Shown here: positions 9,144-10,343 of the stretch, piece after piece | How the letters are laid out: every line of letters starts with the position of its first letter | How positions within the stretch are numbered: position 1 is the first letter of the stretch | Source of the DNA: a virus | Taxonomy: Duplodnaviria > Heunggongvirae > Uroviricota > Caudoviricetes | Strand: one strand, 5' to 3' | Virus record (IMG/VR): IMGVR_UViG_2526164690_000021 | Length of the DNA stretch: 12,182 nt | Notes under the pieces: generated by a model | What the model was told of the DNA's origin: nothing | Databases searched by the model: none | What the model saw: only the letters and a program-made list of their open reading frames with translations | Made by a program: the position numbers and the translations under genes

Positions 9144-9914
9144 ATGGAAACCGTATCTGACGCACTGAAAGCACTGAAAAAAGCCTCTTCACATGTGGTG
9201 GCAGCTCGCCTTGGAATCAGTCGTGAAGAGGCTGTCAACGAGCTGTGGGAACTCAAAATAAATGGCGTCGTTGATAAAACTGGTCACACCTGGTTTCTGG
9301 CTGGCGAAGGTGAATCCCGGGTAACCGAAGAGCGGCCAGTAAAATCTGAAGCACAGGATATGCTGACCGGGGAGGTCGAACAAAAAGTTACCGCAGACAT
9401 GATGATTGAGTTTATCGGTCAGGATGGGGCTAAAACGTGTGAGGAACTGGCGGGTAAGTTCGGTGTCAGTACTCGCAAGGTTGCTTCCACGCTGGCGGTG
9501 GTAACCGCAACGGGGCGGCTGGCACGCGTTAATCAGAACGGTAAATTTCGTTACTGCATGCCGGGCGATAATTTACCAGCAGAGCCGAAAGCCGCGCTGG
9601 TAACGGAAAGTGATGGTAAGGCCTTTCCTCAGCCAGCAGGTGCTGCGTTACCAGTCCGGGAAGCCGCAACACAGGAAGAAATTAAAACAGAAACTGTGGC
9701 GGACATTGTGCAGCCGTTGCCATCGTTTACCGAAACGCAAGCAGATGAGCTGATTTTTCCGTCCCTTCGCAGGGCAAACCTGGCGCTGCGCAGGGCGAAA
9801 AGTGATGTTCAGAAGTGGGAGCGAGTCTGCGCCGCGCTGCGGGAGCTGAACAAGCACCGGGATATTGTTCGACAGATTACTGATTCTTCCCGCCGTGTTG
9901 TATCGGAAAAGTGA
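9144..9914 (+). CDS. Hypothetical protein with two tandem winged-helix-like modules (256 aa)
   Basis: ATG 9144 with GGAGG (9131-9135); internal duplication VVAARLGISREEAVNELWELKINGVVDKTGHTWFL and CEELAGKFGVSTRKVASTLAVVTATGRLARVNQNGKFRYCM. Confidence 0.7.
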   Translation: METVSDALKALKKASSHVVAARLGISREEAVNELWELKINGVVDKTGHTWFLAGEGESRVTEERPVKSEAQDMLTGEVEQKVTADMMIEFIGQDGAKTCEELAGKFGVSTRKVASTLAVVTATGRLARVNQNGKFRYCMPGDNLPAEPKAALVTESDGKAFPQPAGAALPVREAATQEEIKTETVADIVQPLPSFTETQADELIFPSLRRANLALRRAKSDVQKWERVCAALRELNKHRDIVRQITDSSRRVVSEK

Positions 9915-9929
9915 TTGCCGGAGGCGCTT

Positions 9930-10343
9930 ATGGCAAAAGTATTTACACAGGAAGAGCGGGAAAAAATTAAAGGGCAGGTTGTTGAGCTAGTACGCCGGAG
10001 TGGGCGCGAGACGTTACGGCAACTGGAAGCCAAGACAGGTGCGACAAGATATCTGATGAGCGTTCTTGCCAGAGAGCTGGTTGCCAGTGGCGATGTATAC
10101 AACTCTGGTTACGGGTTATTCCCATCTGAACAGGCTCGTAAGGACTGGCAAAACGCCCGCAAAAAACTATCGAGGGCAAAACTGAAGAAACCGGTTGTGG
10201 TTGATCCTGACCTTATCTGGTCATTACCAGACGGAGAAATACGCCGCTATGACAGGCAATTGAACATAATTTGTAGTGAGTGCCGTAACAGTGAAGTGAT
10301 GCAGCGAGTTTTGATATTTTACACAGGAGTAATGATGGAATAG
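9930..10343 (+). CDS. Hypothetical protein (138 aa) with an N-terminal HTH-like segment
   Basis: ATG 9930 with GGAGG (9920-9924) 5 nt upstream; the track ORF begins at an upstream TTG 9915; last gene before the GC drop. Confidence 0.65.
   Translation: MAKVFTQEEREKIKGQVVELVRRSGRETLRQLEAKTGATRYLMSVLARELVASGDVYNSGYGLFPSEQARKDWQNARKKLSRAKLKKPVVVDPDLIWSLPDGEIRRYDRQLNIICSECRNSEVMQRVLIFYTGVMME

Follow-up and report, generated by a model that had tools for sequence, protein, structure and literature searches.

What do the two genes that close the replication module of a lambdoid prophage of Escherichia coli O157:H7 encode, and what could their products do for the phage? The question is raised by a stretch of 12,182 nucleotides of viral DNA (IMG/VR record IMGVR_UViG_2526164690_000021; the window in what follows, meaning the whole stretch analysed), which is 99.9% identical to the lambdoid prophage found at 1.166-1.178 Mb in strain TR01. 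Two plus-strand genes lie at positions 9144-10343: P1 (9144-9914), which encodes a protein of 256 amino acids (aa) of the DUF1627/YdaW family, and P2 (9930-10343), which encodes a 137-aa protein of the DUF977/LygF family. They are the last two genes of the early-right operon, behind the genes of a Cro-like regulator, a cII/YdaT-like protein, a replication initiator and a DnaC-like helicase loader, and they occupy the slot that ren holds in phage lambda. An earlier, sequence-only reading of the window had described them as a pair of winged-helix proteins of unknown role at the end of the replication module, which turned out to be essentially right. Judged from sequence comparison, P2 is a long-form homologue of lambda Ren, and we tentatively propose that P2, and probably also P1, are dispensable Ren-like accessory factors with an anti-exclusion role linked to replication.

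Neither protein is a new object, as each exactly matches a catalogued family member. P1 is identical to WP_000450992.1 (RefSeq 'DUF1627 domain-containing protein') and P2 to WP_001151233.1 (RefSeq 'DUF977 family protein'), and RefSeq annotates exactly these two coding sequences. The length of 256 aa given for P1 from the sequence alone was correct, and the 138 aa given for P2 has to be amended to 137 aa from the ATG (142 aa from a TTG at 9915). Strong ribosome-binding sites had been noted for both genes, and they are indeed there: as read from the sequence, the Shine-Dalgarno elements are GGAGGA at 9131-9136 (+), 7 nt ahead of the ATG of P1, and GGAGG at 9920-9924 (+), 5 nt ahead of that of P2. 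The winged-helix nature of both proteins and the Ren label of P2 were already present in public resources; the present analysis maps the domains of the YdaW family, connects its middle domain with Ren at the level of profiles and adds data on synteny, and no new kind of element is described.

The relationship of P2 to Ren emerged from several comparisons. P2 matches the Pfam family PF06163 (DUF977) with 95.5 bits (E = 3.7e-27, cutoff 22.1), its residues 1-133 corresponding to positions 1-131 of the 134 in the profile. It also matches PHROG 142, 'Ren-like exclusion protein', at 4.4e-45, and lambda Ren itself (taken from NC_001416) matches the same family at 1.6e-41. When the DUF977 profile was aligned with lambda Ren using hhalign, an E value of 1.9e-5 was obtained. 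A C-terminal motif is common to P2 and Ren (NIICSECRNSEVMQRVLIFY vs NLVFKECRQSAAMKRVLAVY), 10 of its 20 residues being identical according to BLASTP (50%, E = 2e-5), and ECRxSxxMxRVLxxY forms invariant columns in both of the alignments A2 and A3. Each protein has an N-terminal winged helix with 'TGAT', and residues 1-65 of lambda Ren match the MarR-type family phrog_1687. The position of the gene is shared as well, directly behind the replication genes of the early-right operon: P2 lies there in the window, as does ren in the O-P-ren order of lambda.

In the AlphaFold2 (AF2) model, the N-terminal winged helix of P2 (residues 1-66; 9930-10127, +) consists of helices 7-24, 29-36 and 40-53 and a beta hairpin, and the predicted local distance difference test score (pLDDT) of its winged helix-turn-helix (wHTH) residues 7-64 is about 90. 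A basic region with a pI of 10.1 follows (residues 67-110; 10128-10259, +), made up of a helix at 67-86 and a low-confidence insertion, and the protein ends with the Ren motif N-I-I-C-x-E-C-R-x-S-x-x-M-x-R-V-L-x-x-Y (residues 111-137; 10260-10340, +). The C-terminal half of P2 was modelled with low confidence, and searches of a database of 5.8 billion proteins returned only close E. coli relatives (at least 85% identity), so that no diversity was gained for the model. P2 differs from lambda Ren in its length (137 vs 96 aa), in a longer first helix and in the basic insertion of about 40 residues (67-110), which is absent from Ren; identity over the aligned residues is 27-38%. Compared with LygF of phages Rac-SA53, 75/02 Stx, PhiR5_2 and others, P2 shows 67-95% identity, and it differs from the LygF of other phages in its last 7-12 codons, which belong to the O157 lineage only.

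P1 is linked to Ren through one of its domains. The protein matches Pfam PF07789 (DUF1627) with 328 bits (E = 9.9e-99, cutoff 28.1; residues 91-245 correspond to all 155 profile positions, 1-155) and, over its full length, phrog_630 (2e-132, positions 1-252 of 253). According to an AF2 model built from alignment A1 of 40 homologues with 21-65% identity, it starts with winged helix 1 (residues 1-55; 9144-9308, +; helices 4-11, 16-23 and 27-39, strands 43-46 and 49-52; pLDDT at least 95), and a variable linker, predicted to be disordered, comes next (residues 56-83; 9309-9392, +; pLDDT 48-56). Winged helix 2 (residues 84-140; 9393-9563, +) was modelled with a pLDDT of at least 95 and is basic. 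The second linker (residues 141-205; 9564-9758, +; pLDDT 52-57) is acidic (pI 4.05) and rich in Pro, Ala and Glu; it is likewise predicted to be disordered, varies in length, and is gapped and weakly conserved in alignment A1. The C-terminal module (residues 206-256; 9759-9911, +) has a pI of 11.4 and contains helices 208-237 and 239-255 with a pLDDT of about 90. Just upstream of this module starts the motif IPxF..R.dDL.xPs...I..EIRRtK..L..LE, in which P206 and R216 are near-invariant. The long disordered linker 141-205 and the conserved basic helical module behind it had been missed by the sequence-only reading, and its assignment of a winged-helix fold was borne out by profiles and structure prediction for residues 1-55 and 84-140 of P1 and 7-64 of P2 (confident AF2 models and Foldseek matches).

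Among the 40 homologues, winged helix 1 is the most conserved part of the family (majority-residue fraction 0.62) and is acidic to neutral, with a mean net charge of -2.0. Winged helix 2 and the C-terminal module have majority-residue fractions of 0.47 and 0.48 and mean family net charges of +4.1 and +6.9, respectively, and the linkers reach a majority-residue fraction of only 0.23-0.24, compared with 0.47-0.62 in the folded parts. Such a charge pattern fits one protein-docking module combined with modules that bind nucleic acids.

It is the second winged helix that resembles Ren. Its profile aligned with the N-terminus of P2 and Ren with a probability of 90% (hhalign, E = 1.6e-6) and with lambda Ren alone at E = 6.8e-5, whereas the first winged helix does not align to Ren (E = 0.05). 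PHROG 142 matches residues 84-137 of P1 (E = 2e-5), and both PHROG 142 and PHROG 1687 touch residues 83-137. On this evidence the second winged helix appears to be of the Ren type; the C-terminal motif of lambda Ren is absent from P1. The earlier suggestion that the second protein begins with a segment similar to that of the first therefore holds at the level of profiles, the pairwise BLASTP comparison of P1 with P2 being not significant (28% over 76 aa, E = 0.46).

The architecture of two winged helices and a C-terminal helical module is common to the members of the family, as seen from phrog_630, 39 homologues and the AF2 model. The conserved core of DUF1627 consists of winged helix 1 and the C-terminal module: short forms of 117-170 aa contain just these two parts, and the number of winged helices is two in the standard form and three in one protein (P0327, 311 aa). 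The C-terminal module was kept in all domain variants found (P0302, P0363, P0259, P0271, P0262, P0375, P0327, P0257 and P0241). Two of these, P0257 and P0241, carry the N-terminus of an initiator (DUF1376 in P0257) fused to the distal part of DUF1627 and look like products of deletions in prophages. In a number of P1 homologues (loci L010, L035, L077, L080 and others) each of the three parts (N-terminal, middle and C-terminal) has its own level of identity to the window, independent of the others, for example 64%, 58% and 98% in L077 and 80%, 100% and 100% in L035, which suggests recombination breakpoints within the linkers.

The best-known relative of P1 is YdaW of the Rac prophage of E. coli K-12. 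The two are 55% identical over residues 1-154 (E = 4e-54), both winged helices included, and the gene order ydaS-ydaT-ydaU-ydaV(DnaC-like)-ydaW is common to K-12 Rac and the prophage in the window. K-12 YdaW is a truncated form of 186 aa that lacks the conserved C-terminal helical module, whereas P1 is the full-length form; moreover, K-12 Rac has no DUF977 gene behind ydaW, whereas the prophage studied here has P2. NCBIfam holds no model for either P1 or P2.

The two families can also be joined in one polypeptide, since the metagenome proteins P0002 (403 aa) and P0004 (372 aa) are fusions of DUF1627 and DUF977. In the window, the TGA stop codon of P1 and the open reading frame (ORF) of P2 are in one frame, five codons apart (9912-9929). 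A stop-codon read-through that would join P1 to P2 was considered and rejected, as the genes of Rac-SA53, Rac and 75/02 Stx do not stand in this frame relation; the shared frame is probably due to chance.

Are the two winged helices of P1 the result of a duplication? The sequence-only reading took the protein for an internal tandem duplication of a unit of about 50 aa. The two units, which together make up 112 of the 256 residues, are not adjacent but separated by the 28-residue low-confidence linker, and a DNA repeat search over 9100-10400 returned short chance matches only, none of matching size. As a pairwise BLASTP of unit 1 against the rest of P1 detected no significant similarity, the claim was examined using profiles. 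When the family profiles of the two units were aligned, hhalign gave a probability of 83% and an E value of 1.1e-6 over 57 columns with 11% identity, and the controls against the C-terminal module gave E values of 0.46 and 0.91. The units are thus alike at the profile level and not adjacent, and a tandem duplication is more than the sequence shows. In sequence terms, their similarity is at the level of any two wHTH families and indicates a shared fold class, with no recent duplication shown; the middle winged helix has been gained or lost within the DUF1627 family, hence an old duplication stays plausible.

A fold of this kind invites the view that P1 and P2 are ordinary sequence-specific transcription factors, similar to MarR, ArsR or GntR, that act on genes of the phage or the host in lytic development or lysogeny. 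When single winged helices of P1 were compared with the Protein Data Bank (PDB) using Foldseek, ArsR, MarR and Zalpha domains were recovered at a root-mean-square deviation (rmsd) of 1-2 A, and the wHTH of P2 (PDB and BFVD) recovered the DNA-binding domains of GntR, MarR and ArsR. The three-helix and beta-hairpin fold of the MarR, ArsR, GntR and Zalpha domains is the same as that of P1 and P2 (1-3 A over 55-70 residues), and the matched ArsR, MarR and GntR domains include DNA-bound ones. Weak Pfam and NCBIfam matches to helix-turn-helix families point in the same direction, as does the literature: YdaW is listed as a predicted MarR-type E. coli transcription factor of unknown function, and Kinch et al. 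2009 assigned DUF977 to the winged-helix DNA-binding domains and also described its fusion to Fic domains, a fusion not present in P2. Each match to a named regulator family, however, was under its curated cutoff. For P1 the scores were 16.6 for HTH_Crp_2 (cutoff 27), 9.6 for GntR (27), 14 for HTH_11 (25), 17.7 for MntR (153) and 13.7 for ArsR/SmtB (55), and P2 gave no matches to MarR, ArsR, GntR or Crp-type regulator families in Pfam and NCBIfam. The AF2 models consist of isolated wHTH units and show neither the helical dimer interface of MarR nor the C-terminal domain of GntR or another effector domain. Furthermore, the best-conserved winged helix of P1 is acidic, no operator-like repeats were seen near the two genes in the repeat search over 9100-10400, and the late regulator, the Q antiterminator, is encoded elsewhere, further downstream in the same prophage. 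We consider a role as transcription factors unlikely, and the more specific suggestion of late-gene regulation made from the sequence alone found no support. The same is true of the suggested partition function, as no ParA/ParB partner is present and the element is an integrated prophage.

Two structural parallels of P1 deserve mention. A sequence search of the PDB returned only weak wHTH matches, namely ADAR1 Zalpha (2l54, E = 0.07), MntR and DDRGK1, and the fold of P1 matches Zalpha with a template modelling score of about 0.7-0.78. P1 has Ala at the two positions that are substituted by Ala in the Zalpha mutant chain 2l54; we take these to be Asn173 and Tyr177 of wild-type ADAR1 Zalpha, contacts of the recognition helix to Z-DNA. 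The residues contacting Z-DNA are thus missing, and the Zalpha reading of P1 was rejected. The whole P1 model was matched loosely, at 12-18 A, to proteins with several winged helices (DDRGK1/UFL1, ScpB, ESCRT-II and SelB). Serial winged helices like those of P1 are found in tandem winged-helix adaptors (ScpB and other kleisin-interacting proteins, ESCRT-II, DDRGK1/UFL1), yet in the model the winged helices of P1 are joined by a linker of 28 residues that is predicted to be disordered, and they do not appear packed together as they are in these adaptors. In the comparison with ScpB, one of the top whole-model matches, the rmsd was 12-13 A; with an inter-domain linker pLDDT below 56 and a predicted template modelling score of 0.36, the orientation of the domains is not predicted, and the model does not support a rigid ScpB-like tandem winged helix.

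More can be learned from the places in which the two genes are found. With one exception among the fully readable loci, DUF1627 lies immediately behind replication genes, whether the loader is DnaC/IstB-like, lambda-P-like or absent, and this position at the 3' end of the replication operon is kept down to 24-30% identity in Enterobacteriaceae such as Enterobacter mori and Raoultella. Divergent copies (24-37% identity) follow lambda-P-like loaders directly in loci L004 and L005; others stand behind DnaC/IstB-like loaders in Enterobacter mori and another Enterobacteriaceae genome (L097, L098), directly behind the initiator in L096, and two small ORFs past the initiator in Raoultella (L099). In one case, L002, DUF1627 lies behind a gene of a RecE-like exonuclease, and LygF in phage PhiR46_1 lies behind an exonuclease VIII gene. 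The slot after DUF1627 is variable and may be filled by DUF977, a small winged-helix protein of the Rrf2 type (L004, L098), a weakly Lar-like zinc ribbon (L096) or a ParB-helix-turn-helix protein (L099). A small Cys-rich protein follows DUF1627 at L096:5599-5856 and L097:5590-5856; that of L096 scored 22.2 bits against the Lar restriction-alleviation family, below the cutoff of 28.6. In phages 75/02 Stx and PhiR5_2 the genes run cro-cII-initiator-DnaC-DUF1627-LygF, and between LygF and ninB lies a variable insert transcribed in the opposite direction.

For DUF977, we examined 70 viral contigs that carry the gene together with enough upstream sequence; the loci came from a scan with the P2/Ren alignment, and the relatives are 91-100% identical to P2. 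DUF1627 was found directly upstream of DUF977 in 47 loci, of which 36 have a DnaC-like loader similar to that in the window and 11 do not. The other 23 have neither DUF1627 nor such a loader. In 22 of them DUF977 stands directly behind an initiator with a DnaT-like tail (...QRCVNHISEPDTEIPPGFRG), and the remaining one retains only a 112-aa initiator remnant with this tail. The initiators of these 23 loci (within L012-L085) have three types of N-terminus and one DnaT-like C-terminal tail, which is also that of the initiator in the window.

This synteny is what might be expected if P1 and P2 were strict replication accessories, which would modulate origin firing, helicase loading or release, or a switch of replication mode through contacts with the initiator, the loader, DnaB or origin DNA, and would have no role in defence. 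The position of DUF1627 directly behind initiator and loader genes throughout the Enterobacteriaceae, even in copies of 24% identity, that of DUF977 directly behind the initiator where loader and DUF1627 are both absent, and the description of Ren as likely involved in DNA replication are in line with this account, and the basic second winged helix and C-terminal module of P1 could bind DNA. On the other hand, lambda can grow without ren, and the literature examined contained no replication phenotype. Both DUF1627 and DUF977 also occur behind genes of RecE-like exonucleases, away from a loader, and many phages with the same initiator have no DUF1627, which is thus not needed for that replication system. 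We regard a purely replicative role as somewhat improbable, if less so than that of transcription factors.

We therefore return to the proposal that P2 and probably P1 are Ren-like anti-exclusion factors, and to what is known of the founding relative. In lambda, ren is carried on the pR transcript with O and P, and its product has been described as 'likely involved in DNA replication'. The gene was named for protection against Rex exclusion; two-hybrid contacts of the Rex proteins with O and Ren have been reported, and a yeast two-hybrid map lists the pair RexB-Ren. Once polarity on Q is relieved the gene is non-essential, and neither P-lethality nor replicative killing requires it. A second line of evidence comes from a retron overexpression screen, in which ydaW of K-12 was a hit as a blocker of RcaT, the toxin of retron-Sen2; recE was a trigger in this screen, and the adjacent racC a blocker. 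The K-12 YdaW fragment carries both winged helices. In addition, either family sits by a RecE-like exonuclease in some phages and RecE is a known retron trigger, which lends support to the anti-exclusion proposal. The anti-defence role listed among the candidates of the sequence-only reading thus gained indirect support from the homology of P2 to Ren and from the YdaW fragment having scored as a blocker of RcaT upon overexpression.

From these data we infer the following tentative mechanism. P1 and P2 would be produced alongside the replication proteins and would attach to phage DNA that is being replicated or to the complex of initiator and loader. Nucleic acids would be contacted by the basic wHTH and the C-terminal module, and the acidic first winged helix of P1 would offer a docking surface for proteins. 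Such binding might prevent intermediates of replication from setting off abortive-infection or exclusion systems, of the Rex or the retron type, whether these belong to the host or to co-resident prophages.

A number of observations weigh against this proposal. The homology of P2 to Ren, as inferred from sequence, rests on a generic wHTH and a motif of about 20 residues, and Foldseek returned generic winged helices only, for P1 (PDB) as well as for P2 (PDB and BFVD), and did not recover lambda Ren. The defence models of PADLOC gave only noise at the level of the wHTH (P1: Csa3, E = 0.005, and CARF3, 0.009; P2: none). The result for YdaW and RcaT was obtained with an overexpressed truncated protein and is available as a preprint only, the text of which is silent on whether ydaW was among the 11 re-tested blockers. 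To say that a protein 'works like Ren' explains little in molecular terms, and the constant proximity to replication genes is just as compatible with a role in replication or regulation alone. Finally, the families of P1 and P2 each occur without the other, and the two proteins thus need not act together.

A wider view may be sketched, although we hold it to be rather doubtful: DUF1627/YdaW and the Ren-like DUF977 proteins might represent one family of modular winged-helix 'trigger-masking' factors of enterobacterial temperate phages. They would be encoded beside genes that trigger abortive infection (those of replication proteins and RecE-type exonucleases), and the number of winged helices (one to three) and the small wHTH partner (DUF977 or Rrf2-like) would be swapped to match defences such as RexAB or retron toxin-antitoxin systems. 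If the anti-exclusion proposal were true, it would help to explain how the co-resident lambdoid and Stx prophages of O157:H7 replicate upon induction without tripping mutual exclusion, and it would have a bearing on the induction of Shiga-toxin phages. Lambda ren still lacks a molecular mechanism decades after it was named, and P1 and P2 belong to one of the commonest prophage modules of E. coli.

How common the module is also bears on the possibility that the two genes are mere filler, decaying or selfish, and serve no function in this prophage at present. The prophage does look defective, the integrase being frameshifted in TR01; ydaW of K-12 Rac is truncated, and deletion fusions to the initiator exist. 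Nevertheless, both ORFs are intact and have strong ribosome-binding sites, and both genes are present in deposited, apparently complete phage genomes. The 1200 bases at 9144-10343 were found with 100% identity in many genomes of O157:H7 and other Shiga-toxin-producing E. coli. Similar DNA is present in 4606 of 5426 complete E. coli genomes, in up to 9 places per genome, and 1132 genomes have at least 80% of the stretch in one place. The linkers drift, but the domain cores remain conserved even in homologues of 21-30% identity, a pattern expected under purifying selection, and we find the filler explanation highly improbable. The DUF1627 family as a whole is small, with 153 clusters at 50% identity among 1.84 billion proteins, and in a one-genome-per-species collection it was confined to Enterobacteriaceae.

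The lambdoid setting of P1 and P2 is evident from the rest of the window. Going by gene order, a cI-like repressor is encoded at 5349-5750 (-), a Cro-like regulator at 5858-6130 and a YdaT/cII-like protein at 6114-6539. The O/DnaD-like replication initiator with a DnaT-like C-terminus occupies 7279-8369 (+), its two halves matching phrog_1701 and phrog_3729. The DnaC-like helicase loader at 8376-9122 (+), directly upstream of P1, was identified by NCBIfam PRK12377 (506 bits) and DnaC (295 bits), Pfam IstB_IS21 and phrog_50. A scan for promoters and terminators around P1 and P2 gave nothing beyond shuffled expectation, and no plus-strand terminator was detected after P2.

The initiator gene is intact in TR01 (363 aa), whereas in the window it is represented by two ORFs, 7168-7920 and 7908-8369. 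The split results from a 1-nt deletion at about 7818, where an A-run has 7 A's; TR01 and most other genomes have 8. Among the 12 records that best matched a 201-nt probe over this run, FORC_044 (NZ_CP016755.1) alone was 100% identical, and the other 11 were 99.5% identical. The deletion may be either a homopolymer assembly error or a strain-specific pseudogene. Relative to TR01, the window has seven indels (at 4763, 4766, 5814, 6583, 7818, 10556 and 11360), each a single-base deletion of A or T, as homopolymer errors of long reads would produce; none falls within P1 or P2. Between the YdaT/cII-like gene and the initiator, two long ORFs overlap on opposite strands: 6627-7061 (+), which matches PHROG 8304 (2.4e-100), and 6745-7236 (-), which is the RefSeq 'ECs1072 family phage-associated protein'. 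At most one of them is likely to be real.

On its other side the module ends abruptly. The GC content drops from about 0.52 to 0.31 immediately past P2, in agreement with the low-GC boundary noticed earlier from the sequence. Nucleotide homology was lost in 77 of 80 related viral loci at 10306, 10309 or 10321, which places a mosaic junction at 10306-10321, within the last 7-12 codons of P2. Matches of phage genomes found by megablast likewise stop at 10306-10321, where the low-GC island starts. Since this junction lies inside the gene, the C-terminal tail of P2 is specific to the lineage (...FYTGVMME vs ...FYQGNFQEAAQ).

Within the low-GC island, the alpha/beta hydrolase gene at 10694-11466 (-), a single coding sequence of 774 nt in TR01, is split into 11263-11466 and 10694-11269, apparently through the 1-nt deletion at 11360. 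The island also contains an Rfam match to RNA-OUT at 11547-11616 (-; 98.8 bits vs a gathering score of 41), with no adjacent transposase ORF noticed in the window. Elsewhere in the window, Rfam identified the small RNA DicF at 3121-3172 (-; 77 bits), near dicB as annotated in TR01.

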